DNA of 64,000 nt, taken from Bacteroidales bacterium. GTDB taxonomy: Bacteria > Bacteroidota > Bacteroidia > Bacteroidales > PXBB01. The stretch lies in assembly GCA_028698995.1 (NCBI GenBank), contig JAQVVM010000010.1, positions 19,857 to 83,856 of the forward strand. Reading direction: 5' to 3'. The translations under genes were made by a program, and so were the position numbers. Positions within the stretch are counted from its first letter, which is position 1, and each line of letters begins with the position of its first letter. The notes beneath the pieces are model-generated. The model was not told the DNA's origin. It did not search any database and saw only the letters and a program-made list of their open reading frames with translations. This document shows positions 5,490-51,112 of the stretch, one piece after another.

Positions 5490-5578
5490 ATACAAGCTTG
5501 ATTTACATTAATTATTCTTAACTGATTTTCCTGATTTAACCTCTTTTAAGCATATTTTGGAATAAATTTCAAATACTT

Positions 5579-7006: not shown

Positions 7007-7110
7007 TTCTTTGTGTTTCATTAAAAATTTTGATCTTTGATTATAAAACCGAAATTTACGCAATTTTAAGGACTCCTATAATAGGAATAAAGTTTTTAAC
7101 AAAAAAAACA

Positions 7111-7587: not shown

Positions 7588-7668
7588 AACTAAAAGTATT
7601 AATGATAAAATTTACTGCAAAGTTAAATAAATATGCCATTATTAAATAGAGAAAAATGAATCTACACT

Positions 7669-8760
7669 TTATATCAATCCTTTTCTTTTCTTAAAATGCA
7701 AGGAGTCTCCCCATTCCCCATATCCTATTGTATGACCTGCAATTTTTATTCGTGCTTCAAGGCAATTTTTGCATTCATCTGCTTCTTCGTCCATGCAGGG
7801 CTTGTCTTCGTAGAGCTGATAATTCTCTCTATACTTGATTGGTGTGAGATTGGGCATGATGACGTTTGCACCAACTTTTATAGCTTTTTCTCTGCCCATG
7901 GGGTCTATGGCCTGCATAGCAGTAGTTGCTGCAATATTGATATCTTTCATCATAATACGTAATAGCGCAATCATCTTTAAACTGAGATTGAAGCGTTCTG
8001 TTTTGCTGATGAGTCTGTCTTTTTCAATATAGAGAGGTGTCTGATGATGCTCAATATAGGGCCCGAGGCCAGCCATATCAATATCAAGTTCCTTGAAAAA
8101 AATCAAATCATCAGCCAAATCACTAATAGTTTGAAATGGCAAACCCACCATTACACCGGTTCCAACTTGAAAACCGGCTTTTTTTAAATTTTTCAGAGCC
8201 TCCAATCTTACGTTATAATCGTGCATGGCATCATCAGGGTGGATTTTTTTATACAGCTCCCTATTTGATGTTTCTATACGAAGCAAGTACCTGTGAGCAC
8301 CGGCCTTAAACCATTTTTGGTAAGTTTCTAAATCTTGTTCTCCAAGGGATAAGGTTACACCCATGGTTCCTTTAGAAATCTGTTTGATTTCTTTAAGAAG
8401 AGCTGAAATTTTTTCTGTAAAGCCCACATTTACCCTTTCACCAGACTGAATAACAATTGAGGCAAAATTATTTTCATAAGCATAACGCACTGCATCAAAG
8501 ACCTCTTCATCTGTCAAATTGTATCGGGTTGAAAATTTATTACCAGCTCTTATTCCACAATAGTAACAATTTTTTACACAGGAGTTAGAGTACTCAATCA
8601 AACCCCTGAAATAAACTATATTACCCACATAATCTTCTTTTATTTGAGCTGCTTTCTTAAAAATTTTATTACGTCCTTCCACATCAGAAGCCAATAATAT
8701 CATAAGCTCTTCATGTGTAAAATTGTCTTTTAATAAAATATCATCAATAATATTAATCAT
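7669..8760 (-). CDS. hydE: [FeFe]-hydrogenase maturase HydE (radical SAM)
   Basis: Radical-SAM CVKNCYYCGIR (CX3CX2C). C-terminal CX7CX2C (CMDEEADECKNC). About 363 aa. Directly downstream of hydF. The ATG at 8760 is preferred over the TTG at 8799. Confidence 0.8.
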   Translation of the reverse strand: MINIIDDILLKDNFTHEELMILLASDVEGRNKIFKKAAQIKEDYVGNIVYFRGLIEYSNSCVKNCYYCGIRAGNKFSTRYNLTDEEVFDAVRYAYENNFASIVIQSGERVNVGFTEKISALLKEIKQISKGTMGVTLSLGEQDLETYQKWFKAGAHRYLLRIETSNRELYKKIHPDDAMHDYNVRLEALKNLKKAGFQVGTGVMVGLPFQTISDLADDLIFFKELDIDMAGLGPYIEHHQTPLYIEKDRLISKTERFNLSLKMIALLRIMMKDINIAATTAMQAIDPMGREKAIKVGANVIMPNLTPIKYRENYQLYEDKPCMDEEADECKNCLEARIKIAGHTIGYGEWGDSLHFKKRKGLI

Positions 8761-32313: not shown

Positions 32314-32564
32314 AAAAATACAATTGTTTCTACTACTCTCCAAAGTTTACAATGTTTATTTATTATTTTCCAAATATAATATAATTCTCATTTATTAAAC
32401 TTTTGTAAAACGGGTTCATAAAATCTATATCGTTTAAAAAATACAAACGAAATCGTAATCAATTATTTAGATTTTATATAAATTAAATCCATATTTACAA
32501 TATATATTAATTAAAAGGAGAAAAACCTCATATTTGTATTTTGATAGTTAGTAATAATAACATT

Positions 32565-38500: not shown

Positions 38501-38756
38501 TGTTTTCACAATAAGTGGCAGGTCTGCATTCCCAATTAACATATTCCCTAACCCGAACAATGGTATTTTTACACTTAACTTATCAGAAGCAACTTATATA
38601 TCTGTTTTCAATACACTTGGTACTGTTGTTTACAGTGGTATTTATGCAGAAGGCACCCATCTTTTCAATCTGAAACATCTATCAGATGGCGTTTACATTG
38701 TCAGGAGTGAAAGTGTACACACATCTGAAAGAATAAAAGTGGTAATTCAAAAATAG
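32565..38756 (+). CDS. Giant (~2063 aa) modular surface protein: N-DFE-x-W modules, four (adhesin-like module + Fn3) pairs, InlB-B/Listeria-Bacteroides-type repeat, 9 two-Cys 51-aa repeats, T9SS type A CTD
   Basis: The track start is TTG. The ATG at 32565 gives MKKTVLLLVLLFATSISFSQ. Recurrent ..P(N/D)CW...LGTMS(D/N)P(N/S)(D/N)..TF..L..F.L.N.Y..F.Y.FDNYSG.DK.I.F modules are each followed by an Fn3-like unit (A.ITW....G.W.I.YG..GF). CYEFVEWSDGRTDNPRFDGPVFHNITVTALF. CTD IFPNPNNGIFTLN...GVYIVRSES...VVIQK. Confidence 0.75.
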   Translation: MKKTVLLLVLLFATSISFSQLINNGDFSNWQVSNYYEYPDEWFIFNDDNAANLIVEKSSLAQQGNYSVKLNTITLGSEILTGAAVYGIIDEDEFKGLPFNLTGNIFHFWYQSNIQPGDMGLMILILYSNGSQIDSLAYPIMSSQSNWTHAMVPVNSSLIQPDSMFLGFLSSVPDFFGGNPSPGSWLRLDNLYFTMGMDPTPLPVPNFSFENWSVAAAEDPDGWQTSNSEHYLILNDTSNVNKSTDYHSSPFASRLEVLDIEGIKMGASLKYTNSNFPYQPSKFYFYYKYLPVGLDTGYINISFTNNGSYVGGVGLPTNGQQLSWEEVELDILYNGIPDKVEVEFQAGSNSGSVLYIDDARFGCINPQNLYGEFTNSTSIQTSWSAGGVETQWQLQWGLQGFPLGTGTNVIVNTNPSHIIDGLNYLNNYDFYVRSICNAGDSSEWVGPYGICIGQDVVIVQDFESVPNNGYPDCWHKYTTGWSQIEALDCCEPHTGNKFLKMSLEGLKTSLIASPLINDDMDTLFISFYAKKNSPQNATLYLGTMSNPSNPATFDTLNAFSLSNVYENYTHYFDNYSGNDKYISILLSTDNGANTEIFMDDIVIDFLPSCIPPLNINANNITLNSADITWDTGGQGLWDIVYGELGFDPYTSGYSDYSITNNSYNLTLLNSGATYDVYLRSDCGIYGLSDWHKINFTTLCSDAHVPIVEGFDNNYVTDLPNCWLSLIEGWGEVFATQYGGNLSQRAANMRMNHNNDSIYFISPYIIENIEDLYVSFDAREQTYDPILQQGTALLTLGTITDPNDASTFTPLQNFPLTNNYDTFQYSFDNYSGSDKRIAFRLKTTNQIYTEIFIDNILVDEVPICLTPDGLNTLNTTINSAVIEWTSTAGEFEIEYGMAPYTFTGIPDSSGITVDTFALSSLNHGTTYEYRVKAVCGPGLESGWSITGSFTTDCDTYQYLHENFDNVSTSQMPNCWTAINTGNSNAFIGAHGSVYFTFPHALLLNNGNLVSSGAQLMAVTPHLDSINQHQIRFFASTNLSSSVLQVGTMSDPNDPLTFAHLQDITIGNNFQEYYVSLSNVTATDGYFAFRHTNPDGGNEEILAVDEFFYEPAESCPRPTALNSNPVNTSSVMLKWTENGNASLWQMEWGIQGFQLGNGNSLNVTQPAKMLFGLTPNTPYEFYVRAICDTVGGDTSLWAGPFAFITDYMCINNTIYGQTPSPISNFLWSAEDMNYTVFQQFTGIGSVFDGLHLWGIQAFWDGSASSECYQEPMDFEVKVFQDNNGQIGTELASFIRSVTPDSTKSTMGLGYQIYEFTLQFPQYFNVADGWFSIRSINSPTCFSLFANTTNPVAQGTLLRVNSITNDTLSYDPLAFCLVNNTHVVNYLSGSNGHLTGQTSQIVLRAGTTSSVLAVADTCYEFVEWSDGRTDNPRFDGPVFHNITVTALFDLKNTMFYDTVYICPGDTFFFGDIQQQVLTEEGNYSGSFITSMGCDSIINLNLIHHPVYEFEQIETICDGDTFSWRGNNYTTENTYFDSLTSVYGCDSVFILQLIVFPSYEYVHHVEICDGDSLTWRGNSYTVQGTYYDSLFTVNGCDSVFTLHLSINPVYEFTHIEQICNNDTFTWHGNDYTAQGLYYDSLTTVNGCDSVYKLHLIILPTYETTEIEHICNGDTFIWRGNSYTDQGMYFDSLLTVQGCDSVFKLHLIVHPTFEFLHTEHICTGDTFNWHGNTYNSQGHYYDSLQTTYGCDSVYILHLIINQPFEFTHQEEICDGDTFSWHGSNFTTQGLYYDSLQTVFGCDSVYILNLSVNPAFEFLQTDTICNGDTITWRGNNYSSQGMYYDSLLSIHGCDSIYKLHLIVNPSFEIIHTEHLCHGDTFTWRGNDYTLAGTYHDSLLTVHGCDSVFTLVLNISTVDVSVSQNGVNLTSNAINSTYQWVDCDNNYNLINGETNALFTATANGNYAVIITHNNCVDTSACYNVTGVFTISGRSAFPINIFPNPNNGIFTLNLSEATYISVFNTLGTVVYSGIYAEGTHLFNLKHLSDGVYIVRSESVHTSERIKVVIQK
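36936..38321 (+). repeat. Nine tandem coding repeats (51 aa / 153 nt), two conserved Cys each
   Basis: Consensus ICxGDTFxW(R/H)GNxYTxQGxYYDSLxTVxGCDSV(F/Y)xLxLxVxPx(F/Y)E. The ATC-TGY anchors of units 2-9 (37098, 37251 ... 38169) are in perfect 153-nt register. The first unit (36936) is degenerate and 54 aa long. Confidence 0.9.
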
Positions 38757-38882: not shown

Positions 38883-39251
38883 GGGGCTGACCGGATTTGA
38901 CAGCAGGGATTGTGGGGAAGTAAGCATGCCGAGCGTTGTGAATATGGCTCGTAAATCCTAATTCTCACGCCTATTAAATGGCAACGATTACAATTACGCT
39001 ATAGCTGCTTAGTTTTAGAAATTAAGCGCAAGCCGTTTCCGGAGAAACATTTCTCGACTGTGTCTCCTGCGAAGCGTCGCAAATGTTGAGATAGCACATG
39101 CAGAGTCTTGATGCAGGTGTGAAATTAAAAAGACTAAGGTTAAGTCAGGTTTGCTTTTGACACGGCTTAACTCGAAAACCAAGAAAAGCTAAGCGTGTAG
39201 AAAGCTTTTTTGCAACTTGTTTGGACCGGGGTTCGACTCCCCGCAGCTCCA
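38883..39251 (+). ncRNA. ssrA: tmRNA (transfer-messenger RNA)
   Basis: The 5' GGGGCUG pairs with the 3' CAGCUCC, including the G3:U Ala identity pair. T-arm GGGGTTCGACTCCCC. Discriminator A, with no encoded CCA. Tag reading frame 38980..39012 GGC AAC GAT TAC AAT TAC GCT ATA GCT GCT TAG encodes GNDYNYAIAA. Length 369 nt. Confidence 0.92.
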
Positions 39252-39255
39252 CAAA
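39240..39255 (+). repeat. attL core (tmRNA 3' end)
   Basis: CCCGCAGCTCCACAAA, identical to 46445..46460. Confidence 0.85.
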
Positions 39256-39263
39256 TTATAAAT

Positions 39264-39300
39264 ACAAAGCCTTGTAAATAAATTACTTACAAGGCTTTGT
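39264..39300 (+). terminator. Rho-independent terminator currently serving ssrA, supplied by the inserted element
   Basis: 14-bp stem acaaagccttgtaa / ttacaaggctttgt with a 9-nt loop, followed by tttatttt. Lies just inside attL. Confidence 0.8.
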
Positions 39301-39345
39301 TTTATTTTACACTCTATTATTACACTCCAAAAGGTTAAACTACTA

Positions 39346-39540
39346 TCATTTTTCTTTATTATTTTTCTCAGCTTCAAACTTATCTATATTACAAACCATT
39401 CTTATTATTTCAAGTGGTTTATTTGTCAGATGTTCCGGCACTGGTATATTAGTACCTAAAAAACATAATTTCGGTTTTGTATCATTGTAGGTGCCGTCAA
39501 TCAATGATTTTATTTCTGATATTTTTCTTTTCTTAATCAT
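39346..39540 (-). CDS. Hypothetical small protein (64 aa), last gene of the element
   Basis: ATG start. ATGA overlap with the upstream 59-aa ORF. No recognisable motif. Confidence 0.4.
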   Translation of the reverse strand: MIKKRKISEIKSLIDGTYNDTKPKLCFLGTNIPVPEHLTNKPLEIIRMVCNIDKFEAEKNNKEK

Positions 39541-39716
39541 TTTATATTTTCATTATCAATAAGATTAATAACTATGTCCTGTGGTCGCACTATGTCCGGG
39601 CTGTAGTTAGGATTGTTGCACTTACCATTAAACAATATAAATATTTTAACTTCTTCATCACTAAGCCCTGCAAGGATTGATTTTATTGTTTTTATCTTTT
39701 GTACTCTATTTTTCAT
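39537..39716 (-). CDS. Hypothetical small protein (59 aa), absent from the ORF track (below 60 aa)
   Basis: Hand translation: MKNRVQKIKTIKSILAGLSDEEVKIFILFNGKCNNPNYSPDIVRPQDIVINLIDNENIK*. The start overlaps the stop of the 91-aa ORF (ATGAAAAATAG) and the stop overlaps the next ATG (ATGA). This pattern suggests translational coupling. Confidence 0.45.
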   Translation of the reverse strand: MKNRVQKIKTIKSILAGLSDEEVKIFILFNGKCNNPNYSPDIVRPQDIVINLIDNENIK

Positions 39717-39981
39717 TTTTAAGTCTTTTTATAAGTTCGTCAAGTTGTTCATCAGTCAGTAACTCTAATTCATTAACAGGTGGTGGCACTATGAATGAAG
39801 CAAGTTTAGTGATGAAGTTTAACCTGTCTTTAGGCTCTAATAAATCAAAATCACTTTGCAGTCGCTCCAGATTATCATTAATAAACTGTTCAAACTTTTC
39901 TTTGAGTGCTTTGGTTGCTTTGTTTGGTGTACCCTTCTTCCTTCCTTCAGGGTTGTTTGTTTGTCCTTTTTTCAGTCCCAT
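39706..39981 (-). CDS. Hypothetical small basic protein (91 aa) with N-terminal KGQTNNPEGRKKGTPNK motif
   Basis: The G-x-x-N-P-x-G-R-x-K-G motif recalls DUF5681-type phage/mobile-element proteins. This is from memory and unverified. Confidence 0.45.
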   Translation of the reverse strand: MGLKKGQTNNPEGRKKGTPNKATKALKEKFEQFINDNLERLQSDFDLLEPKDRLNFITKLASFIVPPPVNELELLTDEQLDELIKRLKNEK

Positions 39982-40050
39982 TTTTATACATTTTTGTTGT
40001 TTACAAAAAGCAAAGGCAGACGGTAAAGCCTGCCCATGCTGAAATTATTA

Positions 40051-40665
40051 TTAAAAATTTGTTCTCATAAAATTACAAAAAGCCTGTTCATCAATTATAA
40101 TATTGAATTTTGGGTAATTTTCAATTTTTATAAAAAAAGAATTAGGATTTATAAGCCTGTCAAATTTCGGGTTCTTTACATATAACTCTTTTGATAATTT
40201 TACAATTTTTTGAAGTTTAACCAAATATTCATTTTCATCATCAGAAATATAAATATTATTTGCTGTAATGGTATTTTTTGCACTTTCTGTTAATGATACA
40301 TTTTCACCATCATAAGTTAAAAATGTAGGGGTGCAAAGTTGCGTGTCATAATTACTTTGTTTAATAGATACATTCAGCAAAGAGAATAATTCTGTAGTGT
40401 CCGGTAATTCCATTAACTCCAAATACTTTTGGCGGTTGTAACCTTCCGGCACTTTGATTTTACTTTGAATTGCAGTTTTTACCAATTCATAAGGATTTTT
40501 AAAAAACTGTGCCCATTGATCCGGCTTAAGTGCTTCACCTGTCAGTTGCTCATACAGTTGTAAAGCCTTTTCAGTGTTCTGTTTTGCGGTTTCAAACGCT
40601 GTACTCATTTTAGTTTCATGTTCTTTGTCTTGCTTAATGCAGACGTTTTTTAAATCGTTTTTCAT
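40051..40665 (-). CDS. Hypothetical protein (204 aa)
   Basis: ATG-initiated ORF in the element operon with no recognisable motif. Confidence 0.45.
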   Translation of the reverse strand: MKNDLKNVCIKQDKEHETKMSTAFETAKQNTEKALQLYEQLTGEALKPDQWAQFFKNPYELVKTAIQSKIKVPEGYNRQKYLELMELPDTTELFSLLNVSIKQSNYDTQLCTPTFLTYDGENVSLTESAKNTITANNIYISDDENEYLVKLQKIVKLSKELYVKNPKFDRLINPNSFFIKIENYPKFNIIIDEQAFCNFMRTNF

Positions 40666-40682
40666 TTGTTTTTGATTTTTGA

Positions 40683-41015
40683 TTAATAATTAATTTGATT
40701 TTGAAAAATTGGCTCCGGTAAAGGTTGCCCGGGTATCAGTTGCCCTGCAAATTCGCAGACGTTACCCTTGTTTGATGAATATTTGATATAATAAAAAATT
40801 GTGTCCTGTGATACGTTTTCTATTTTATCAATTTCTTTTAAAGTGATAATGTTTTTTTTAGTAACCTGATTCGTTTTATTCTGATTTATCACTGAATTAA
40901 TTTTTAATCTCATAAAGAATAAAGCTTTTTTCTTTTCAGCTTTTGCCTCTCTTTTGGCTTTTTTCTTAAGATTATTGATAACTTGCTGTTTAATTTTATT
41001 AGTGTTTTTTCTCAT
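40683..41015 (-). CDS. Hypothetical protein (110 aa) with Lys-rich N-terminus
   Basis: KKKAKREAKAEKKK basic stretch. Its start lies 2 nt after the stop of the PolA-like ORF. Confidence 0.4.
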   Translation of the reverse strand: MRKNTNKIKQQVINNLKKKAKREAKAEKKKALFFMRLKINSVINQNKTNQVTKKNIITLKEIDKIENVSQDTIFYYIKYSSNKGNVCEFAGQLIPGQPLPEPIFQNQINY

Positions 41016-41016
41016 A

Positions 41017-42324
41017 TTAGTTAAGGTTTATTTTTTCAAGTAACTTTTTCAAATCCTGTAATCGTTCTAAATAGGGTAAAAACGTTTTTTTACCGTTATT
41101 AAATTTTATTGTAGCAAGATGACAATCAATAAATACAGATACGTTTTTTATAATACTGTATTCATTAAATTTTATGGGTTCTGTAGGTAGTTTGATATTT
41201 GAAAAGAAAAATTCAAGTTCCTGAATATTCCAAACAGATTGTGCCTGAATATCAGTTATTTTATTTATAATAGTGTCCTGCATTATTGGTTCGGGGGGTG
41301 CTTCCGGCACCTCTTTACAATTCAGTTTATAATACTGAAAATTTGCTTTCAAAACCTCATCAAACAAAGCCTTTGCCCTGTGTTCATCATTCTTTTTTAT
41401 TACAATCTCATCATGTATTGATAAGAAAGGTATATTGTTTTTAATTAGCAGTTCCCAAACGCTTCGCATTATACTAACTTCTGTATTTTGTAGTAACCAT
41501 GCTAAATTAGAATGTACTTTGTGTTTGTTATGTGGGTTTTTAGGTATCTCAGCACCTTTAAACTCATTTATCCAGTTTATCCAGTCAGCACTGCCAAACA
41601 TTTTTGAAAGTTCATCACTGGGCTTGCTAAAGAGTATTTCAAAAAATCTTTTCTTTGCTTTATCTCTTGTTTGCAAATTCGCTTTTTGTTGTAACATTAC
41701 ATAAATGTCGGCACCTGAATTAATCCATTCAGAATATTCATTTATACCTATTTTAGAATATAAAATTTTACCTAATAGAAGCGGTTGCATAGTGGCAACA
41801 TCTAAACTGGTGGTTTGTTCATTATCAATTAATAAATTATGTCTTAAGTGCCTGTGAAAATTACTTACAGGGGTGTATACCCTTCCAGCAAATTTATCTA
41901 CAGTGAAAAAAATCCGGGTGTAAACATCTTTGAATTTAAGGAAGGTATCAAAATAAAATGTACTTTCTGAATTAGCCTTTAATCCTGTTCTTTTTAAGTA
42001 ATTCATCATTTGTGCTGTGATATTATCTAACTCCCTTCCCTTTTGCGTGATAAGATTTAAATTAACTGTGCCGGGCTCAGTTGCTTCATAAGAGTAGTAT
42101 GTATATTCATTTTCAGAATGTGAATGAATTATGATTTTCTTTTCTGTGATAAGTTCCTGAAGCAACAAATTATTAAAACAGTCCCGGGCTTTAAAAAAAT
42201 CCACTACATCAGATTTACCAATATTAACAGATGTCTGATTTTCTGCACCTCTTAATCTGAATTGCAAAAACTGTTTAGTTCTTACAAATATTACAAATTC
42301 GTTTTTTATTGCCTCTTTGTTCAT
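41017..42324 (-). CDS. Compact family-A (Pol I-like) nucleic-acid polymerase candidate (435 aa from ATG; 450 aa from the track GTG)
   Basis: Collinear motifs: GRVYTPV; motif A SLDVATMQPLLLG; GADIY; motif B RDKAKKRFFEILFS (R/K/F/F spacing +4/+8/+12); QNTEVSIMR; motif C SIHDEIVI. No exonuclease motifs seen. Numbering follows the 450-aa track ORF. Confidence 0.6.
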   Translation of the reverse strand: MNKEAIKNEFVIFVRTKQFLQFRLRGAENQTSVNIGKSDVVDFFKARDCFNNLLLQELITEKKIIIHSHSENEYTYYSYEATEPGTVNLNLITQKGRELDNITAQMMNYLKRTGLKANSESTFYFDTFLKFKDVYTRIFFTVDKFAGRVYTPVSNFHRHLRHNLLIDNEQTTSLDVATMQPLLLGKILYSKIGINEYSEWINSGADIYVMLQQKANLQTRDKAKKRFFEILFSKPSDELSKMFGSADWINWINEFKGAEIPKNPHNKHKVHSNLAWLLQNTEVSIMRSVWELLIKNNIPFLSIHDEIVIKKNDEHRAKALFDEVLKANFQYYKLNCKEVPEAPPEPIMQDTIINKITDIQAQSVWNIQELEFFFSNIKLPTEPIKFNEYSIIKNVSVFIDCHLATIKFNNGKKTFLPYLERLQDLKKLLEKINLN

Positions 42325-42342
42325 CTTATTGGTTTTCAATGT

Positions 42343-42529
42343 TTTGACTGTGTTAACTGCACTTAACACAGTTCTGTGTTAATACCTGTGTTAACATAGT
42401 ATAATATAAATTTTGTACTCATTTGATTTTCAATTAATTGACTGTGTTAGGTACTGTGTTAACTTACTAATTTTTAATACTGTGTTAATTAACTTGTGCC
42501 TATATATAGGCACAGTTAACACAGTACAG
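42343..42529. promoter_or_regulatory. Iteron-rich putative replication origin of the element
   Basis: The 9-mer CTGTGTTAA occurs direct at 42348, 42374, 42386, 42454 and 42480 (variant CTGTGTTAG at 42442) and inverted at 42363 and 42516. There is an 18-bp perfect palindrome GTGCCTATATATAGGCAC at 42496..42513 and an AT-rich spacer at 42395..42440. Confidence 0.65.
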
Positions 42530-43624
42530 TTAAAATATTTCTTGTTGTTTATCATTTTTATTTAAAGTATAATAAGCATCTCGGGACTTGTCAGCACCCT
42601 GTTTTTTAATAAATCCTTCATTATTATAATACTGTATGAAAGTTCTACACTTGCTTTTCCCAAACTCAAAACCATTTTTGCCAAACTTTAAAATGATATT
42701 TTCCATTAAATCATTATACTTTTGATTTTTTTCAATTTCAAAAACTTCATTAAGTATAATTTTATGTACATTGTCTTGAATGGTATTTACTGTTATTGCT
42801 TTTGTGGCACCTTCTTTTTTTGAAACAAAATTTTCTACAGTTCGGGGCAATCCTTCATTATCAATAACAAATGCAAACTTTTTAAATTCTTTATCTCGGC
42901 AATACTCAGCTTCTACAATTGAAAAATCTGTATTATTACTGTCTTTCGTTATTGATAAGGTAGTTTCTGCTTTATTAATTAGCTCAGTGCCCAAATGTCC
43001 CCGGGCGTTATTATCTGATTTATTTTGATGAAGCACGCAAATAATATGTATCTGTTTTTCTTCACTCCATTTTAAAAGCTTGCTTGCTATGGTGGTGGCT
43101 TGCTCTTCATCATTTATTGAGGTTGCCAAATCTTTAATACCGTCAATGATAACAAAGCCTACATTTGCAGTATTATTAATAGCATATTCGATTAATTCCA
43201 GTCGCTCTGAAGGTGTAAACTTTCTTAAATGATAAATTATAAGGTTATTCGGGTGCGATCTTGTTAATGAACAAATACGTTTAGCGACTATTAAAACATG
43301 ATATTCGCCTTGCTCAGTATCGAAGTATAATATTACACTCTTTTCAGGTGGCAAAAAGCCTGTGATTATTTCTGAATTATCTTTTATTATTGCAGTGATA
43401 ACCATTGTAATAAAAAAGGTTTTTCGGCTTTTAGCTTTTCCAATAACTAAACTGAAATTGCCTAAAGTTGAAATAATACTATCAGAAATTTTCAGGCACC
43501 ATGCCGGCGGTTGTAATTCCTTTGTAAAATCAATTTTAACGCTCTGTAACGTGCTTTCGTTATCTGATTGGGGCTTTTGTTCTTCGCAGACAATATCTGT
43601 AAAGAATTCATCTGGTTTTGTCAT
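42530..43624 (-). CDS. RecA-fold replicative ATPase (RepA/DnaB C-terminal-like, AAA_25-type)
   Basis: Walker A VIGKAKSRKTFF, Walker B GFVIIDGIKDL, HIICVLHQNKSDNNARGHLGTEL. 4-nt overlap with the upstream HTH gene. Confidence 0.65.
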   Translation of the reverse strand: MTKPDEFFTDIVCEEQKPQSDNESTLQSVKIDFTKELQPPAWCLKISDSIISTLGNFSLVIGKAKSRKTFFITMVITAIIKDNSEIITGFLPPEKSVILYFDTEQGEYHVLIVAKRICSLTRSHPNNLIIYHLRKFTPSERLELIEYAINNTANVGFVIIDGIKDLATSINDEEQATTIASKLLKWSEEKQIHIICVLHQNKSDNNARGHLGTELINKAETTLSITKDSNNTDFSIVEAEYCRDKEFKKFAFVIDNEGLPRTVENFVSKKEGATKAITVNTIQDNVHKIILNEVFEIEKNQKYNDLMENIILKFGKNGFEFGKSKCRTFIQYYNNEGFIKKQGADKSRDAYYTLNKNDKQQEIF

Positions 43625-43914
43625 TTTGCACCTGCTCTTCCTTTTTTATATGCCAGTGCTTCTAATACATCAGTTTTGCGAAAAATAATAGTTCTTTGTG
43701 CCTGTGAATAGGGCACTTTACCACTATTCTTAATTTTCTGTGCAGTAGGTACACTTACTTTAAGATACTGAGCAAGCCCATTAATTCCATAAATAAGGGG
43801 TTCGGGTTCGGGCTCGGTGGTGGTGGTGTTTGTGATTGGTTGGTGCTTAATGTCAAGTAATAAACTTTCGATATTACTTAACCGGGCTTCTAATAAATCA
43901 AATGGATTTGTCAT
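43621..43914 (-). CDS. Excisionase/AlpA-like helix-turn-helix DNA-binding protein
   Basis: INGLAQYLKVSVPTAQKIKNSGKVPYSQAQRTIIFRKTDVLEAL resembles an excisionase-family HTH. The ATG at 43914 is preferred over the TTG at 43941. Confidence 0.55.
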   Translation of the reverse strand: MTNPFDLLEARLSNIESLLLDIKHQPITNTTTTEPEPEPLIYGINGLAQYLKVSVPTAQKIKNSGKVPYSQAQRTIIFRKTDVLEALAYKKGRAGAK

Positions 43915-43989
43915 ATTACATTGTTTAAAATTACAATGCAATATTAAAACAGACTAAAAACGGTAACTTGTTACAACGTGTTACAAAGT

Positions 43990-44937
43990 TTATTTAAATT
44001 CATTATTATAATGATATTCTAATATTTTTAATTCATCACTTGCCTTTTGTTTACAAGCTTCCGGCAATATTTCAATAACACTTTTAAATAATTTGATTTT
44101 ATTTTTAAATATTTTTTGGGTATAATTAAATGGTGGTTCTTTTCTGTTAATAGGGCTCGAATAATAATTATATTGATTAAGCAATCTTTGCCCTTTTAAT
44201 CCAAAATCTTTTGCAATTTCATTGCAGTTATCATTTGTAATTGATATACTTTCATAAACATATTTTAATGCAATTTGATTAATAGTTAATCCGGGCTTTT
44301 CTTTTGGTGGCTGTGGCTCAGATTTATTGCATTTCATTTCATATTCAGAACGTGCCAGTTCTGCTTTTATCCATTCAATTAAACCAATAGAATTATAATA
44401 ATCATTTGTGATTTCATCAAATCCAGTACTTTTTGAATAGATGTCAAACAATAAGTTCATTAAATATTTGTGCTTCTCTGAAGGCTCTTTAATGCTTAAT
44501 AACTTTACTTCAATTTCTTCAAATTTAAATTCAAAATTATCAGTCTCTTTCATTATTTCATTAATAAACAAATCAGGATTTAAATCAAACCTATAATCTA
44601 AAATCTGAATATATACCATGCTAATTTTATCAGTTTCAGGATAATGATGTAAAATGCCTAAAATTCTATCAATAAAAAATAGTTGTTCAACTTCATTAAA
44701 CTTATATAAAATTGATATTTGTTTAATTTTTTCAAGACAAGCAAAAGGCTTATTGCTATTATTTTGAATAAAAAAATAAATATCATGTAAAGCTTTGATG
44801 AATACACTAAAATTTTTATTTGTTTTTGGCTTATTGCTTCCTGAAAAAAGAAAATACAAACTTTGTGCATTTACGTTAAAATGTCCATCAGGAGTGCTTA
44901 AGTATTTATCATAATTAATTTTTTCTTCTTTTTTCAT
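43990..44937 (-). CDS. Hypothetical protein (315 aa)
   Basis: ATG-initiated with a 4-nt overlap with the integrase stop. No recognisable motif. Confidence 0.45.
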   Translation of the reverse strand: MKKEEKINYDKYLSTPDGHFNVNAQSLYFLFSGSNKPKTNKNFSVFIKALHDIYFFIQNNSNKPFACLEKIKQISILYKFNEVEQLFFIDRILGILHHYPETDKISMVYIQILDYRFDLNPDLFINEIMKETDNFEFKFEEIEVKLLSIKEPSEKHKYLMNLLFDIYSKSTGFDEITNDYYNSIGLIEWIKAELARSEYEMKCNKSEPQPPKEKPGLTINQIALKYVYESISITNDNCNEIAKDFGLKGQRLLNQYNYYSSPINRKEPPFNYTQKIFKNKIKLFKSVIEILPEACKQKASDELKILEYHYNNEFK

Positions 44938-46274
44938 GCTTCATTAAACTTATTCATTGATACTGCTTTCTGTTTATCGGTAATCTTAATATATGCCTCG
45001 AGTGTGCGGTGGTCTTTATGGCCAGTCCATGCCCTTATAATATCGGGTTGTATTCCTAAATATAAAGCATTGATAATAAAAGTTTTTCGGGCGGTGTGGG
45101 TTGTTAACAGTTCCCATTTTTCAAAAGTCGTATCAATACGCTTGTTACCCCTAAATTCTGTTATACTCTCTTTGCTGTCAAATCCTGCCAAACGTGCAGC
45201 TTCTTTTAGATACTCATTATACTTTTGGTTGCTAATTACAGGAAACGCCCTGTTATCTCTTAAATCAATATTCATGTACTTATTCCAAATGGCAACTGCA
45301 TATTTGTTTAACTGAATTGTAAGTTTGTCATCAGTCTTTACAGTCATAATTTCAATATACAAATTACCTTCAGCATCTTGTTTGAAGTCGTTCTTTTTCA
45401 GGTTTGCAATATCTGAGTATCGAAGCGACGTAAAGCAACAAAAGCAATATACATCTCTAATTTGTGCCAGTTTGGTATTACTCAGAAAATCAAAGTTATT
45501 AAAATGCTGTAATTCATTCCACGATAAAAAAACAATATTATTTTGATAGTCGCCTGTTGAAGTGCCTTTAAATTTAAACTCAAAATTCTTAAAAGTAAAA
45601 TTAGTATTATATCCCTTCTTTACACCCCAATTTAAAAACCACTTAAAAAGCTTCATATACTTTAAATTAGTGGTGTTATTCAGCTTCAAAACAGTTCTTT
45701 GATAGTTTATATAGCTTTGCAGTAATTCGCTTGTAATGTCGTTAAAATGCAAATCTTTATTATATGCTGATAAGTGGGTTTTTAAGGTTTTAATTTTTTT
45801 AATAGTGCTTTCGCTCCAGTCTTTTGCTGTGCCTTCACTGTCGATAAATTCCTGTACATATTCAATCAGATTTTTAGGGCGTTCGGTAACTGGTGTTTGT
45901 TCTTCTTCAAAACTTTCTAACTTTTCAATAATTTCAGTTAATTCCTTCCAAATATATTTTTTATTTACAGACAAATTTAAGTCTATAGCATTTTTATAAA
46001 TATTTGGTAATTGCTCTTTAATTAGTGCAATACGCTTGTTTATAGTGCCTGCTGTAACTCCCTGTTTATTGATATTATTACGCTTTACAATCTGTTCATC
46101 ATTGTTCCATTTATCAATGTCAATCCGATAACCTATAGGATAAATTGCCCTTTGCCCATCAAATTCAAAATCAATAAGTATAGGTACATTTTCAGTAATT
46201 AATTGCCCTGTGGTCTTGTCTTTTCTCTTTTCTAACTTAAAGCCTGTGATTGCCAGTGTTTTTCTACTTTTCAT
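44934..46274 (-). CDS. int: Tyrosine recombinase/integrase (Bacteroidota-type, long N-terminal arm/SAM-like domains)
   Basis: Catalytic-domain motifs FTSLRYSDI (Arg), HTARKTF (H-x-x-R), WTGHKDHRTLEAYIK (His...Tyr). Adjacent to attR. Confidence 0.85.
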   Translation of the reverse strand: MKSRKTLAITGFKLEKRKDKTTGQLITENVPILIDFEFDGQRAIYPIGYRIDIDKWNNDEQIVKRNNINKQGVTAGTINKRIALIKEQLPNIYKNAIDLNLSVNKKYIWKELTEIIEKLESFEEEQTPVTERPKNLIEYVQEFIDSEGTAKDWSESTIKKIKTLKTHLSAYNKDLHFNDITSELLQSYINYQRTVLKLNNTTNLKYMKLFKWFLNWGVKKGYNTNFTFKNFEFKFKGTSTGDYQNNIVFLSWNELQHFNNFDFLSNTKLAQIRDVYCFCCFTSLRYSDIANLKKNDFKQDAEGNLYIEIMTVKTDDKLTIQLNKYAVAIWNKYMNIDLRDNRAFPVISNQKYNEYLKEAARLAGFDSKESITEFRGNKRIDTTFEKWELLTTHTARKTFIINALYLGIQPDIIRAWTGHKDHRTLEAYIKITDKQKAVSMNKFNEA

Positions 46275-46444
46275 ATTTGAGTGTATTTATATTTACACTC
46301 CAAATTTACACTCTATTTTTGATTAATGCAAATTTATTTTAATTTATTTTGTTTAAAAGATAAATTTATTATACCTTTGAACAGTGGCTTATAAGACTTC
46401 TTTAATATTTTTAGTTTAATATTAATTAAAATAAAATTATAGAG

Positions 46445-46460
46445 CCCGCAGCTCCACAAA
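46445..46460 (+). repeat. attR core (duplicated tmRNA 3' end)
   Basis: CCCGCAGCTCCACAAA, identical to 39240..39255. Confidence 0.85.
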
Positions 46461-46667
46461 ACAGTATTGAGTGTGAGTAGAGAGCAAGAGGATTACTAGT
46501 ATTAAGTTTTACGAACGCTCAATACTGTTTTGTCCCTCAAGACTCAAACTCAAACTCCAACTGTGCAAAAAATCAGTTTTGAGTGTGAGTTCCGAGCAAG
46601 AGCGAGGAAAGAACATTTAAAACTGTTTTGTCCCTCAAAACTCAAACTCTAACTCAAACTGCATTTA

Positions 46668-47012
46668 ATGTTCGATTTCGAAAAACTTGACGTTTATAAC
46701 AAAGCAAAAAATTACAACCTAAAAGTTACATCATTTCTTAACACTACAAAAGTTGATAAAAACACTCTCGACCAGCTCAGAAGAGCTTCATTCAGCATTA
46801 TGCTTAATATAGCAGAGGGTTCCGGAAGGTTTACTAAACCTGACAAACGAAACTTTTATATTATTGCAAGAGGTTCAGCATTTGAATGTGTAGCTATTTT
46901 TGATTATATGAAAGATATAAGCATCATTAATGAGATAGAATATGAAGAATTTTACTCTTTACTTGAAGAAATTTCTAAAATGCTTTATTCCTTGATTAAA
47001 GGATTGCAATAA
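46668..47012 (+). CDS. Four-helix-bundle protein (23S rRNA intervening-sequence protein / Avd-like family), copy 1
   Basis: 114 aa. FEKLDVY..A......V......K......DQLRRASFSI.LNIAEGSGRF...D...FY.IARGS..E is typical of this family. Confidence 0.8.
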   Translation: MFDFEKLDVYNKAKNYNLKVTSFLNTTKVDKNTLDQLRRASFSIMLNIAEGSGRFTKPDKRNFYIIARGSAFECVAIFDYMKDISIINEIEYEEFYSLLEEISKMLYSLIKGLQ

Positions 47013-47206
47013 ATCAGTTTTGAGTGTGAGTTCCGAGCAAGAGCGAGGAAAGAACATTTAAAACTGTTTTGTCCCTCAAGACTCAAACTCAAACTCCAAC
47101 TGTGCAAAAAATCAGTTTTGAGTGTGAGTTCCGAGCAAGAGCGAGGAAAGAACATTTAAAACTGTTTTGTTCCTCAAAACTCAAACTCTAACTCTAACTT
47201 CATTTA

Positions 47207-47551
47207 ATGTTCAATTTCGAAAAACTTGACGTTTATAACAAAGCAAAAAATTACAACCTAAAAGTTACATCATTTCTTAACACTACAAAAGTTGATAAAA
47301 ACACTCTCGACCAGCTCAGAAGAGCTTCATTCAGCATTATGCTTAATATAGCAGAGGGTTCCGGAAGGTTTACTAAACCTGACAAACGAAACTTTTATAT
47401 TATTGCAAGAGGTTCAGCATTTGAATGTGTAGCTATTTTTGATTATATGAAAGATATAAGCATCATTAATGAGATAGAATATGAAGAATTTTACTCTTTA
47501 CTTGAAGAAATTTCTAAAATGCTTTATTCCTTGATTAAAGGATTGCAATAA
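47207..47551 (+). CDS. Four-helix-bundle protein, copy 2
   Basis: Identical to copy 1 except codon 3 (GAT to AAT, D3N), 539 nt downstream. Confidence 0.8.
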   Translation: MFNFEKLDVYNKAKNYNLKVTSFLNTTKVDKNTLDQLRRASFSIMLNIAEGSGRFTKPDKRNFYIIARGSAFECVAIFDYMKDISIINEIEYEEFYSLLEEISKMLYSLIKGLQ

Positions 47552-47743
47552 AACAGTATTGAGTGTGAGTAGAGAGCAAGAGGATTACTAGTATTAAGTT
47601 TTACGAACGCTCAATACTGTTTTGTCCCTCAAGACTCAAACTCAAACTCTAACTCAAACTGTTAAAACCTTAATATTCAAATCCCTGAAGAGTAAAATAT
47701 CAAAGATGCTTAAAATTTTACTAAAACTAAACCAGTAAATACT

Positions 47744-47770: not shown

Positions 47771-48289
47771 ATGACTCAACTGCTATTCAATAAAGATATA
47801 TACACTAAGGTCATTCAGGAAAGTATCCCCAAAGCTAAAGAGTTTGTGTGGATTGCCACAGCCGATATTAAAGATATGTATGTATTACAAAATGGCTCCA
47901 TGAGACCTTTTCTGGCAATACTGGCAGATCTTATTTCACGCAGGGTTGAAGTGCGATTGATGCATGCCAAAGAACCCGGACCAAACTTTAGGAAGGATTT
48001 TGATGCATATCCGGTTTTGTTTGGTGGGTTGGAACGTATGCTTTGCCCACGAATACATTTTAAAATTGTTATTGTGGATGGTATAACAGCTTATACAGGC
48101 AGCGCCAACCTTACAGGTGCCGGCATGGGTGCCAAAGGCGACAATAACCGTAATTTTGAAAATGGCATACTGACTAAAGATCCTGCTTTGCTGTCTCAAC
48201 TGTTGGAACAATTTGACAGTGTGTGGCGGGGAGATTTTTGCAGTAAATGCAAAAGGAAAGCGTATTGTGGGGATTGTCCGGTGAAGTAA
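47771..48289 (+). CDS. Single-HKD phospholipase D-superfamily protein (Nuc-like endonuclease) with C-terminal Cys4 cluster
   Basis: HKD motif HFKIVIVDGITAYTGSANLT (H-x-K-x4-D-x6-G-S-x-N). 172 aa with a single HKD copy, as in dimeric Nuc/BfiI-type nucleases. C-terminal CSKCKRKAYCGDC. Confidence 0.75.
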   Translation: MTQLLFNKDIYTKVIQESIPKAKEFVWIATADIKDMYVLQNGSMRPFLAILADLISRRVEVRLMHAKEPGPNFRKDFDAYPVLFGGLERMLCPRIHFKIVIVDGITAYTGSANLTGAGMGAKGDNNRNFENGILTKDPALLSQLLEQFDSVWRGDFCSKCKRKAYCGDCPVK

Positions 48290-48520: not shown

Positions 48521-50881
48521 CTATTCTACCACAGGAACAATACTATCTGTTGGGATTGGGTTGGTAATGATTAGTTGGGATGAATCCACTAAAGTTGTGT
48601 CGGGTGGTACATAGGTATGGCACTTATAATTCAGTAAAATCGTTTCTTTAGGTTTGGTTGGAAACTTCCCTCGGTAATGTTTGAGTGTTTTGTCGGCCAG
48701 CACTTTCTCCATAAATAAACCGAAAATCGGTAAAGCAGTTCTACTGCCTTGCCCTAATTGTCCGCTTCTGAAATGGATACTTCTGTGTTCACCACCAACC
48801 CATGCACCACCAACAAGTTTTGGCGTAACACCTACAAACCATGCATCGGAATAATTGGATGAAGTTCCTGTTTTACCGCCAAAATTGGTATTATACCTAA
48901 ATAAATCCCAGCCCCACAAAGCTTTTGTTGTGGCTCCCGGTTCAGTCATTCCGCCCTTAAGCATTTCGGTCATTAACCAAGCTGCCTGATAAGGAATAAC
49001 ACGTTTTTGTTCTGATTCGTGTTCATAAATAATGTTCCCTTCTTTATCTTCAATACGTGTAACAATCACCGGATCATGATAAATACCTTCGTTTACAACC
49101 GTACTGTAAGAGTTGACCAATTCCAATAAAGTCACATCAGATGAGCCCAGGCACAGGGAAGGATTATACTCCAAATCAGATTTGATTCCTAATAAATGAG
49201 CATATTTGATAATTTCAGAGATACCTACTTCATATGCTATTTGAACTGCAATTGTATTTATGGAACGTGCAAAAGCATTTTTCAAAGTAACAGGATAACG
49301 CAAAAATTCTCTGTTTGCATTCTGGGGAGTCCATACTCTTGGTTTTCCCCCAATCATGAACCTCCATGCAATAGGTTTATCAATCCGCGTAGCACAGGGA
49401 GAAATACCATTCATAACAGCAGCGGTGTAAACAAAAAGTTTAAAAGTTGAACCTGCCTGTCGTTTAGCCTGTGCTACTTTATCGTATTGCCAGAACTTAA
49501 AACTGATGTCTCCAACCCAAGCACGTATATTACCTGTTTCGGGTTCCAAAGCAACAAAACTCCCATGCAAGAAGCGGTTCATATAACGAATAGAATCCAT
49601 TATGCTTAAAGTAGTATCCTTTTCACCTCTTCTGTAATCAAAAACTTTTATCTTTCGTGGCAAATTGAGATACTTATTTATGGAATCGGTATTATTATCA
49701 AAACTGTCTTTCAGTGCTATGTAAGCATCTGTTTTCTTAGCTAAATCCTCAATAAAATTTGGAATATCCCTATGTTTTTCATCCTGCCAGGGATTTCTAC
49801 CACGCCAATGTTCAAAAAACCTGCTTTGCAATCTTCGCATTTGTTTATTAACGGCTTGTTCAGCATAGATTTGCATGCGGGAGTCAATAGTCACATAGAT
49901 TTTTAATCCATCCGAATAAATATCATAATCATTTTCTTCCTGCCATTTTTCAAGGAATTTGGCTAAATAGGCTTTAAAATATAAAGCATTTCCATCATTT
50001 GATTGTTCAATACGGAAATCTAATTTGAGTGGCAACTCTTTTAGTGAATCACATTCCTGTCTTGTAATAACATGGTGTGTAAAAAGGTTTTCGAGTACCA
50101 CATTACGACGGGATTTCGACTTTTCGGGATTTAATACAGGACTGTAGGTAGTGGTTGCTTTTAACAAGCCTACCAAAGTCGCTGATTGTTCGTAATTAAG
50201 TTCTGCCGGAGTTGTTTGGAAAAAAGTCTTGGCAGCGGTTTTAATCCCGTATGAATTACTCCCGAAATTCACGGTGTTTAAGTACATTGTCAGGATTTCT
50301 TCTTTGCTGTAGAAAATTTCCAGTTTAACAGCAGAGATCCATTCCTTCGTTTTCATTATCAACAGTCTCAAACCTGGTATATAGCCGAATAAGCCTGTAT
50401 AATCATGATTCCGTGTCTCAAACATATTTTTTACCAACTGTTGGGTAATAGTACTTGCACCCCGAGGTTTGCCTTTAGTCATGTCTTTGAAAGCTGCAAG
50501 AACCCCATGAAAATCAATGCCAAAGTGAGAATAAAAGCGTGCATCTTCAGTGCAGATAAGAGTATTAATCAGTTTCGGAGATATTTCTTCATACGAAACC
50601 GGTGTACGGTTCTCGCGGAAATATTTTCCCAACAATTTCCCATCGGCAGTGATAATTTCAGAAGCCACACTCTGTTCAGGCCTATTGATACTGTATAGAC
50701 CGGGTGATCTCCCAAATAGCCATAAAAAATTAATATCAACCAAAAATATGTAAATAAATAAAAGAACTACTCCTGTCAGAAATAAATTGGCAATTTTGCG
50801 ATACCATATCAGTCTACGATATCTTTCAAGACGATACCTCCTCCATATTAAGAACTTCCGCCACCAGAGGTTAATGAGCAT
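48521..50881 (-). CDS. mrcA: Bifunctional penicillin-binding protein 1A (glycosyltransferase 51 + transpeptidase)
   Basis: GT51 motifs EDARFYSHFGID, GASTITQQLVKN, RKxxE-like KTKE. TPase motifs STFK, SIN (SxN), KTGTS. The start is uncertain: ATG at 50881, or a TTG at 51052 adding 57 aa. Confidence 0.88.
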   Translation of the reverse strand: MLINLWWRKFLIWRRYRLERYRRLIWYRKIANLFLTGVVLLFIYIFLVDINFLWLFGRSPGLYSINRPEQSVASEIITADGKLLGKYFRENRTPVSYEEISPKLINTLICTEDARFYSHFGIDFHGVLAAFKDMTKGKPRGASTITQQLVKNMFETRNHDYTGLFGYIPGLRLLIMKTKEWISAVKLEIFYSKEEILTMYLNTVNFGSNSYGIKTAAKTFFQTTPAELNYEQSATLVGLLKATTTYSPVLNPEKSKSRRNVVLENLFTHHVITRQECDSLKELPLKLDFRIEQSNDGNALYFKAYLAKFLEKWQEENDYDIYSDGLKIYVTIDSRMQIYAEQAVNKQMRRLQSRFFEHWRGRNPWQDEKHRDIPNFIEDLAKKTDAYIALKDSFDNNTDSINKYLNLPRKIKVFDYRRGEKDTTLSIMDSIRYMNRFLHGSFVALEPETGNIRAWVGDISFKFWQYDKVAQAKRQAGSTFKLFVYTAAVMNGISPCATRIDKPIAWRFMIGGKPRVWTPQNANREFLRYPVTLKNAFARSINTIAVQIAYEVGISEIIKYAHLLGIKSDLEYNPSLCLGSSDVTLLELVNSYSTVVNEGIYHDPVIVTRIEDKEGNIIYEHESEQKRVIPYQAAWLMTEMLKGGMTEPGATTKALWGWDLFRYNTNFGGKTGTSSNYSDAWFVGVTPKLVGGAWVGGEHRSIHFRSGQLGQGSRTALPIFGLFMEKVLADKTLKHYRGKFPTKPKETILLNYKCHTYVPPDTTLVDSSQLIITNPIPTDSIVPVVE

Positions 50882-51112
50882 CAGTGCAAAAGGCAGGTCT
50901 CTTTTAACAATTTCCTCTAAGTATTTTAACCAAAAAATAAACTTTGACCACCAGAAAACTAAAAATTTTCTAAAAATGGAAATATTTTCTTTTATTTTTT
51001 CCACACTTAATTTTATTTCTTTTGGTAAAACCACTTTTAAAATTTCAGACAAGAAATGAAAAGAAATCTTTACTGCAAAAGTATTCTAAATTATTTTAAA
51101 TTTGTATAAATA

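Follow-up and report, generated by a model that had tools for sequence, protein, structure and literature searches.

Proteins of the PF05635 family have been known since the early 1990s as open reading frames (ORFs) in intervening sequences (IVSs) of 23S ribosomal RNA (rRNA), and later as Avd in diversity-generating retroelements (DGRs); we know of no role established for them outside DGRs. Here, we describe a 64,000-nt stretch of DNA from a Bacteroidales bacterium (GenBank assembly GCA_028698995.1, contig JAQVVM010000010.1, positions 19,857 to 83,856; hereafter the window) in which two nearly identical PF05635 genes, predicted to encode four-helix-bundle (4HB) proteins, are interleaved with five copies of a structured repeat, termed R, that consists of a hairpin with a T-tract and a trailing tail of hexamers. 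Related modules of R and 4HB gene recur in other genomes behind transfer RNA (tRNA) genes and behind ssrA, the gene for transfer-messenger RNA (tmRNA); we refer to both kinds of gene as tDNA. A paper on rRNA insertions in the candidate phyla radiation (CPR) terms the PF05635 domain functionally uncharacterized, and the literature, as covered by an incomplete searchable library, contained no description of the tRNA/tmRNA linkage or of the R motif.

The 23S rRNA IVSs of Leptospira and Coxiella burnetii carry a PF05635/S23p ORF, of the same protein family as the module. In both systems a PF05635 ORF lies within the transcription unit of a highly expressed stable RNA and is bracketed by complementary sequences, which in the module are the tail upstream and the 5' arm of the next R downstream of the ORF, and both behave as selfish or hitchhiking elements. 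The module differs in being located not in an rRNA helix but behind the 3' end of a tRNA or tmRNA, so that no excision from a mature RNA is needed, and in flanks that are unreported for IVSs (a conserved hairpin with a T-tract, plus the hexamer tail). In Coxiella, RNase III excises the IVS, and the ORF within it is reported to be decaying and probably untranslated (PMC4990558), whereas the 4HB gene described here is under strong purifying selection, with a ratio of nonsynonymous to synonymous substitution rates (dN/dS) of ~0.1.

Avd is a positively charged pentamer that binds a defined stem of the DGR RNA (10.1101/2023.10.23.563531). The 4HB protein is predicted to share its fold (Foldseek template-modelling (TM) score ~0.7 to bAvd; 4DWL and 8UB7), and both are encoded by a small gene beside a structured RNA element, but the two proteins have only ~10% sequence identity and the 4HB protein is neutral where Avd is basic. 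We rejected a DGR at this locus. It has no template repeat/variable repeat pair, its only repeats being the R units and the duplicated gene, with one G/A difference between the gene copies; its protein is neutral; and the eleven ORFs scanned between 39.7 and 51 kb include no reverse transcriptase (RT).

Three further systems share individual features with the module. As in tDNA-borne islands and cis-mobilizable elements (CIMEs), it is located at tDNA 3' ends, some loci contain a displaced copy of the tDNA 3' end, and an integrase-bearing island occupies the same ssrA in the window; it differs in being a unit of ~450–540 bp with one gene and no integrase, in having the R hairpin as its repeated boundary, and in lacking a flanking tDNA repeat at most loci, the window included. 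With intrinsic terminators, R has in common a T-run after the hairpin (at least four T in 50 of 60 hairpins), a 5' A-tract as in bidirectional terminators (3–5 A in most), and a G-poor, C-rich stretch that follows and is possibly Rho-loading (8.5% G and 33% C over the next 40 nt against a background of ~19.5% each); in the tRNA clusters of loci L078 and L136 it also stands after the last gene. Unlike ordinary terminators, R has AU-rich stems of 20–25 bp and conserved 12-nt loops, is missed by a consensus scan, and retains its primary sequence across Bacteroidota orders. Type III toxin–antitoxin systems (ToxIN) likewise place short tandem RNA repeats and a hairpin upstream of a small protein gene, but the 4HB protein is unrelated to the ToxN/AbiQ endoribonucleases, and in the module the hairpin precedes the repeats instead of following them.

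Linkage of the module to tRNA and tmRNA genes

Using a profile built from 44 homologues, we identified 79 loci in species-representative genomes at 56–74% identity. All but one are labelled Bacteroidota (Bacteroidales, Crocinitomicaceae/Fluviicola, Cytophagales, Chitinophagales and Saprospiraceae); among the 79 are one metagenome-assembled genome (MAG) labelled Comamonadaceae and one unclassified bacterium. At ~70 of the 82 loci with close homologues (56–86% amino acid identity), the gene lies on the same strand just downstream of a tRNA or tmRNA gene or of a remnant of its 3' end. ARAGORN called a same-strand tRNA or tmRNA ending less than 1,600 nt upstream of the gene at 55 of these loci, with a median gap of ~130 nt, comprising Leu (n = 18), tmRNA (n = 14), Arg (n = 14), Met (n = 3), Lys (n = 2) and Val, Ala, Glu and Phe. 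Of the 27 loci without such a call, some 15 start within the RNA gene or carry a remnant of the tDNA 3' end right before R, and an Rfam search of 20 loci without a tRNA call found only one tmRNA.

In other Bacteroidota, the module stands behind at least nine tRNA species, and it does so in a narrow register: 30 R hairpins begin 0–3 nt past the end of the tRNA or tmRNA, and the distance from hairpin end to ATG clusters at 32–41 nt. By a rough estimate, a random gene would lie this close behind one of ~50 tRNA genes in a 4-Mb genome in well under 1% of cases. The related loci show a conserved Bacteroidota module, not a local oddity, and its native position is directly behind the 3' end of a tRNA or tmRNA gene. 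Among the carriers are Crocinitomix catalasitica ATCC 23190 (L010, tmRNA–R–gene–R), Labilibacter sediminis CG51 (L019, tRNA-Arg) and Saccharicrinis sp. FJH54 (L011). A different arrangement was observed in L060 and L070 (~2790–2900, 3411–3811), where the 4HB gene is preceded by a (GCAAGA)n microsatellite of ~20 copies and followed, ~70 nt downstream, by a convergent tmRNA gene.

The array in the window is separated from ssrA by an integrative island of ~7.2 kb. In two relatives, L002 and L003 (83% amino acid identity), there is no island, and ssrA runs straight into a B-type R, followed by the gene and a second R. The window therefore represents an ssrA–R–gene–R arrangement that was later invaded at the ssrA 3' end. 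The same kind of later insertion ahead of the R–gene module occurs in L001 and L015; the element in L001, placed before its module, resembles the 7.2-kb island. Downstream synteny between the window and L002 is absent, L002 having an unrelated gene where the window has a PLD-family neighbour, and in this comparison the conserved block is ssrA plus the module. A preliminary description of this DNA had placed the array directly at attR, the right attachment site of the island. The overlap is real, but it does not characterize the island: L002 and L003 show that the array natively adjoins the 3' end of ssrA itself, and the array seems to begin at attR because the island entered that end and displaced the array by 7 kb. 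Both copies of the 16-nt att core in the window belong to the island; no third copy was found in the window, including to the right of the array, and no tmRNA fragment bounds the array there. Behind the module of L001, the opposite strand carries a YgjP-like gene and a type I restriction hsdR gene (4587–7800).

Both parts of the module are under constraint. Between the window and L002, identity is 93% for the R hairpin, 89% for the tmRNA, 82% for the gene and 66% for third codon positions, and dN/dS for the gene is 0.11 against L002 and 0.06–0.07 against more distant copies. Measured in this way, the comparisons show purifying selection on R and on the 4HB gene alike. Conservation of R includes the loop and the motif GTCCCTCAA behind the hairpin, so base pairing alone does not explain it.

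The R hairpin and its tail

The R hairpin is 60–75 nt long and has a stem of 20–25 bp. Aligned single-unit intergenic regions share one order of elements. The tRNA end (discriminator and C74) is followed by an A-tract, CAGTTTGGAGTGTGAGT and three or four variable bases; then come the loop GAGCAAGAGCGA, bases complementary to the variable ones, a return stem ACTCACAC..CAAACTG, a T-tract, GTCCCTCAA and a G-poor tail of ACTCNA hexamers ACTCACACTCCAACTCAAACTG, which is separated from the ATG by 3–9 nt. The next R overlaps the stop codon of the gene or lies right against it. Variant classes switch the arm and its partner jointly, GAGCAAGAG pairing with CTCTTGCTC, and GAGTGAGAGCGAGAGCGA with TCGCTCTC...ACTCAC.

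A covariance check on related loci had been proposed in the preliminary description, and its outcome favours the hairpin. In an alignment of 25 sequences with a 24-pair helix, 79.2% of helix cells were paired compared with 68.5% in shuffled alignments (reached in 0 of 500), and the covariation score was 0.241 compared with 0.111 in shuffles (again 0 of 500) and at most 0.113 when partners were slid. The three loop-adjacent pairs carry 9, 8 and 12 double changes, giving apical variants such as TTCC/GGAA, TAAA/TTTA, TTTC/GAAA, TATA/TATA and GGGGA/TCCCC. Among cells that depart from Watson–Crick pairing, 29 are G·T but only 4 are A·C (p 1e-5), and the sense strand forms a more stable hairpin helix than the antisense strand does (p 2e-5). 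The G·T bias and the strand asymmetry show selection on the sense strand, which points to an RNA or at least a top-strand function. No family in Rfam 15 matched R at its gathering score, and at E-values up to 10 there were only chance-level matches of at most 23 bits.

We also asked where R occurs. A covariance model (CM) built from relatives, CM R1, has 82 sense-strand sites in 468 kb of protein-anchored loci, 79 of them beside a 4HB gene; the repeats have structure, as stated in the preliminary description, and keep to this gene family instead of being dispersed. In a reverse test, metagenome contigs were scanned for GAGTGTGAGTNNNGAGCAA, and a hairpin was regarded as complete if it gave a CM hit at E ≤ 0.01. 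This filter was needed, as most of the 140 matches were chance ones in unrelated GC-rich or eukaryotic contigs. Complete hairpins were present at ~25 metagenome loci, ~20 of which are behind a tRNA or tmRNA gene; of these, ~9 are accompanied by the gene, 7 lack it despite sufficient room (tRNA-Leu, Lys, Arg, Ser and Ala) and 4 are cut at contig ends. Three or four further loci have no adjacent tDNA. R is therefore a tDNA-trailer element, with the 4HB gene a frequent but dispensable passenger. A 5'-arm-like sequence, CAGTATTGAGTGTGAGTAGTGAGCAAGAGG, was observed without the remaining hairpin in L085, L134, L143 and L100, within an intergenic repeat family whose members share the block ...GCAAAACATAATCGGCCTGCAACGAGCCC... 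and lie away from any tRNA or 4HB gene.

The tail is a near-copy of the 3' arm of the hairpin and hence complementary to the 5' arm, for which the preliminary description had raised alternative or pseudoknot-like pairings. These are thermodynamically competitive: in type B units, the arm–tail fold is the minimum-free-energy structure, and the second R of L002 has a 23-nt arm insertion complementary to a 48-nt tail insertion (helix −63 kcal/mol, z −6.5). Across loci, however, compensation is not consistent, as changes in the variable triplet are matched in the proximal arm alone and not regularly in the tail. Arm–tail duplexes are more stable than shuffles (z −3.1) and cognate pairs outperform non-cognate ones (p 0.002), but duplex stability is higher for the antisense strand (p 0.003). 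Because the three tests disagree, we do not claim an arm–tail helix, and pseudoknot or alternative pairing is unproven. Complementarity also exists between the tail upstream of the ORF and the 5' arm of the R that follows the ORF; in the sole informative case, the second R of L002, the tail pairs with the arm of its own unit.

Hexamer periodicity is found in both halves of R, and the number of tail repeats varies from 3 to 8 or more units. Two samples of one gene, L002 (541–591) and L003 (60–133), have tails that differ by one 12-nt unit, and some tmRNA loci contain 4 to 8 or more tandem 37-nt tail units; both kinds of variation count against arm–tail pairing. Tail copy number also varies in L020 and L028 (downstream of the gene) and in L170, L188 and L201.

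The array in the window and its counterparts

The window contains two 4HB genes and five R units in the order A1–B1–gene–B2–B3–gene–A2 (Table 1), and CM R1 finds exactly these five sites in the 64 kb and no other, with no R behind the tRNA-Arg gene of the window. All five units fold 2.8–4.0 s.d. better than shuffles (A1: −29.3 kcal/mol, z −3.8), and the arms of the type A hairpin are 22–24 nt long and 86–88% complementary. The core TTGAGTGTGAGT occurs five times on the + strand and its near-complement three times in tails, compared with a chance expectation of 0.27 in the window, and all eight occurrences fall within the array. Both genes are 345 nt long and encode 114 amino acids; their sole difference is at nt 7 (G/A), giving D3N, and their starts are 539 bp apart.

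The gene pair, the five structured repeats in this order and the overlap of the array start with attR had all been reported in the preliminary description and are borne out. It had also given the inner pairing of the type B hairpin as GTTC/GAAC; the hairpin is present, but comparison with relatives shows that its apical stem is TTCC/GGAA flanking the loop GAGCAAGAGCGA. On the whole, the observation is confirmed and the interpretation partly supported.

Table 1 Features of the R–4HB array, the adjacent island and ssrA in window coordinates
Feature	Position	Strand	Evidence and remarks
ssrA (tmRNA gene, tag GNDYNYAIAA)	38883..39254	+	ARAGORN; Rfam RF00023, 159 bits; attL on 3' end
attL core CCCGCAGCTCCACAAA, 16 nt	39240..39255	+	Exact direct repeat, tmRNA 3' end
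~7.2-kb integrative element in ssrA 3' end	39256..46444	-	Pfam matches; between ssrA and array
Tyrosine integrase of 7.2-kb element	44934-46274	-	Pfam Phage_integrase
attR core CCCGCAGCTCCACAAA	46445..46460	+	Last 3 nt are first 3 nt of A1 A-tract
R hairpin A1 (type A, enlarged loop)	46458..46531	+	CM R1 57.2 bits, E 4e-12
A1 tail: GTCCCTCAA, then ACTCNA hexamers	46532..46563	+	Sequence; alignment with relatives
R hairpin B1	46570..46629	+	CM R1 73.3 bits, E 2e-16
B1 tail, gene 1 leader; ends 6 nt before ATG	46630..46661	+	
4HB gene copy 1 (D3)	46668..47012	+	PF05635 E 3e-26, TIGR02436
R hairpin B2, starts within gene 1 stop codon	47011..47070	+	CM R1 73.3 bits
B2 tail, same type as A1 tail	47071..47102	+	Sequence
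R hairpin B3	47109..47168	+	CM R1 73.3 bits
B3 tail, gene 2 leader	47169..47200	+	Sequence
4HB gene copy 2 (N3)	47207..47551	+	PF05635
R hairpin A2, terminal	47550..47623	+	CM R1 57.2 bits
A2 tail	47624..47661	+	Sequence

Both gene copies match PF05635 (23S_rRNA_IVP; 92.1 bits compared with a cut-off of 33.8, profile positions 1–105 of 106) and TIGR02436 (86.2 bits, cut-off 24). The AlphaFold2 model (predicted local distance difference test score 94.1) has four long helices and Foldseek TM scores of 0.78–0.90 to 2GSC and 2RLD; together with the likeness to bAvd, these matches uphold the four-helix-bundle assignment made from the sequence alone. 2GSC and 2RLD were each deposited with five chains. 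The 4HB protein is not basic (isoelectric point (pI) 6.3; K+R = D+E = 16). The absence of rRNA and RT, likewise proposed earlier, holds within the ranges covered: Rfam found no rRNA gene in the window, and Pfam found no RT among eleven ORFs between 39.7 and 51 kb, which include most of the island, the rest of the window being unscanned. Three of the eleven ORFs had no match, and some island ORFs fall outside that scan. PADLOC matched no defence-system model to the 4HB protein. Viral contigs contained only one distant 4HB relative, which argues that the module is not phage-borne.

Arrays comparable to that in the window occur in other genomes. In L013, a tRNA-Arg gene is followed by four R–tail–gene units that are 96–99.8% identical and then by a terminal R, and two or more gene copies are also present in L015, L061, L010 and L102. 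The duplication in the window fits this recurrent pattern; of the earlier suggestion that a small mobile cassette had recently duplicated, the duplication is plausible in view of these arrays of two to four near-identical units.

A second copy of the tDNA 3' end, 17–62 nt long and mostly 22–35 nt, is present at 14 of 55 loci. Such a copy is what integrase-type insertion at a tDNA leaves, and a length of 22–35 nt would fit a crossover of tDNA integrases in the T loop. In L016, L040 and L047, a GIY-YIG mini-gene and a copy of the tRNA-Leu 3' part lie between tRNA-Leu–R and R–4HB, which suggests that several kinds of small cassette share these tDNA/R boundaries and form arrays behind tDNAs. The mini-genes (L016 2485–2926, L040 2504–2924 and L047 2521–2866; PF01541, E 1e-17 to 1e-19) run at their 3' end into a 57–62-nt copy of the tRNA-Leu 3' part, and GIY-YIG remnants lie behind the 4HB gene in L001 and L004. 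In L017 (3340–3483), a duplicated tRNA-Arg 3' fragment downstream of the 4HB gene has a GC-rich insertion of ~80 nt in its T loop and is followed by a second R and a degenerate second 4HB copy.

Pfam matches in the 7.2-kb island comprise Phage_integrase, SAM_5, Arm-DNA-bind_5, AAA_25, HTH_17/DUF3853, DUF6965 and DUF5681. Its genes are all on the − strand and encode DUF5681, DUF6965 (450 amino acids), AAA_25, DUF3853/HTH_17, a 315-amino-acid protein without a Pfam match and the tyrosine integrase. Upstream, a 2,071-amino-acid ORF (32541–38756, +) ends ~130 nt before the tmRNA gene. To the right of the array, a small PLD-family protein (47771–48289, +; PLDc_2 and weak DrmC-like matches) is encoded between the array and the PBP1a gene (48521–51052, −).

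A proposed stable-RNA-trailer cassette and its alternatives

The anatomy of the module, its tRNA/tmRNA link, a hairpin selected on the sense strand and purifying selection on gene and R are best accommodated, at a probability that we put at roughly 0.6, by a non-autonomous cassette in stable-RNA trailers, with R as a terminator or processing hairpin, a gene expressed by read-through and arrays formed by R–R recombination. R would fold in the primary transcript right behind the stable RNA and act as a terminator and/or 3'-processing hairpin. In transcripts that read through, the unstructured, G-poor tail would become the 4HB leader, so that the gene would ride on the strong promoter of the stable RNA, and the next R would end transcription of the unit. 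Copies of R and, in some genomes, duplicated tDNA 3' ends would supply the homology for recombination, by which the cassette would expand into arrays, be lost so that a solo R is left and probably pass from one tDNA to another. Termination or processing, read-through and the recombination route are inferred from sequence: the first is treated with caution because the stems are long, AU-rich and missed by the consensus scan, and the second follows from the 30-nt tail being the leader, which leaves no room for a promoter between R and ATG.

Several observations weigh against this cassette. A plain terminator would need neither the conserved loop GAGCAAGAGCGA nor the motif GTCCCTCAA, and the fixed register of R behind many different tRNAs has no explanation under it. 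A consensus terminator scan calls none of the five R units, whose stems of 20–25 bp are AU-rich and whose loops are at least 12 nt. A sigma-70-type consensus scan identified no promoter, although both consensus scans are uninformative for this phylum and hairpin type, and the array in the window has been severed from the ssrA promoter by the island, yet both of its 4HB genes are intact. Att-type duplications of the tDNA 3' end occur at only about a quarter of loci. Finally, because relatives were drawn from the 80 best genome hits of the protein and from loci with one repeat motif, the frequencies should not be read as genome-wide.

Alternatively, R could be above all a DNA recombination site and the R–gene unit a non-autonomous integrative cassette akin to CIMEs or integron cassettes. 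The 3' ends of tDNAs would capture such a cassette, and a recombinase acting in trans, such as an integrase from a tDNA island residing alongside, would multiply it. The cassette-like R–gene–R layout, solo copies and tandem arrays would all follow, as would the duplicated tDNA 3' ends (17–62 nt at 14 of 55 loci), the integrase-bearing islands in the same att region in the window and L001, and the GIY-YIG mini-cassettes of L016, L040 and L047 with their identical boundaries of tDNA 3' copy and R. We nonetheless regard this as rather unlikely: the G·T:A·C ratio of 29:4 and the strand asymmetry indicate selection on a single sense strand, most simply as RNA, the units of an array are near-identical copies of one gene and not diverse cargo, no tmRNA fragment lies to the right of the array in the window, no dedicated recombinase accompanies the module, and the module is essentially absent from viral contigs. 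About equally tentative is the idea, raised in part in the preliminary description, that the 4HB protein has R and its tail as its RNA partner, in which a (pentameric) ring would bind the 5' half, with GAG every 6 nt, or the tail, with CUC every 6 nt, either for autoregulation or as a processing or protection ribonucleoprotein (RNP) on stable-RNA trailers, by analogy with Avd, TRAP and type III antitoxin repeats. Conservation of loop and tail motifs beyond the needs of pairing speaks for it, as do the hexamer periodicity in both halves with its variable repeat number in the tail, the five-chain depositions of both solved homologues, and pentameric Avd, which binds a specific RNA element next to its gene (10.1101/2023.10.23.563531). 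The 4HB protein is neutral, however, whereas Avd is positively charged; R also persists as solo copies with no gene beside them; and the co-inheritance of gene and R, although consistent with partnership, is expected of any neighbours.

Two more trivial explanations fare worse. The presence of two copies could be an artefact of assembly, with a repeat-rich locus expanded in a short-read MAG, but this is improbable. The source appears to be a MAG, and copies that differ by 1 nt and are bounded by repeats are where assemblers err; however, the repeats that flank the two units are not identical (A1/B2 and B1/B3 show several differences, and a hybrid repeat lies at the junction), identity between the two 300-nt stretches is 97% and not 100%, and arrays of two to four units are found in the independent assemblies of L013, L015, L061, L102 and L010. 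A generic repeat of the repetitive extragenic palindromic (REP) or miniature inverted-repeat transposable element (MITE) kind, with no functional tie to gene or tDNAs, might be suspected from the 5'-arm-like CAGTATTGAGTGTGAGTAGTGAGCAAGAGG in other intergenic repeats away from tRNA and 4HB genes (the four loci named above, plus L093 and L186). These sites have no complete hairpin by CM, however, and nearly every complete hairpin follows a tDNA, adjoins a 4HB gene or does both, in a constant register; the copies in the window are confined to the array, with none even behind tRNA-Arg. On the window and the loci sampled, we therefore reject a generic repeat, which is very improbable.

Whichever reading of the module applies, a large, well-conserved subfamily of PF05635 systematically trails tRNA and tmRNA genes, which extends the association of the family from rRNA to stable-RNA genes generally. 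R, in a fixed register, covarying and with no entry in RNA databases, is a candidate RNA motif for annotation and a concrete cis element for binding, processing or termination; it also explains tRNA-gene fragments and small repeats behind Bacteroidota tDNAs. Annotation should take into account that such arrays beside attR sites are not part of the integrated island. More speculatively, and with rather low odds in our estimate, PF05635 proteins may be dedicated partners of structured trailers of, or insertions in, stable RNAs (rRNA, tRNA and tmRNA), with the Bacteroidota R as the cognate RNA. The GAGCAAGAGCGA loop, the GAG/CUC hexamers and a 4HB ring oligomer might then, on an equally cautious estimate, form a self-propagating or self-regulating RNP that targets tRNA and tmRNA 3' ends. 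If this partner reading were true, the 30-year-old 'IVS protein' family would gain a function and a defined RNA ligand.

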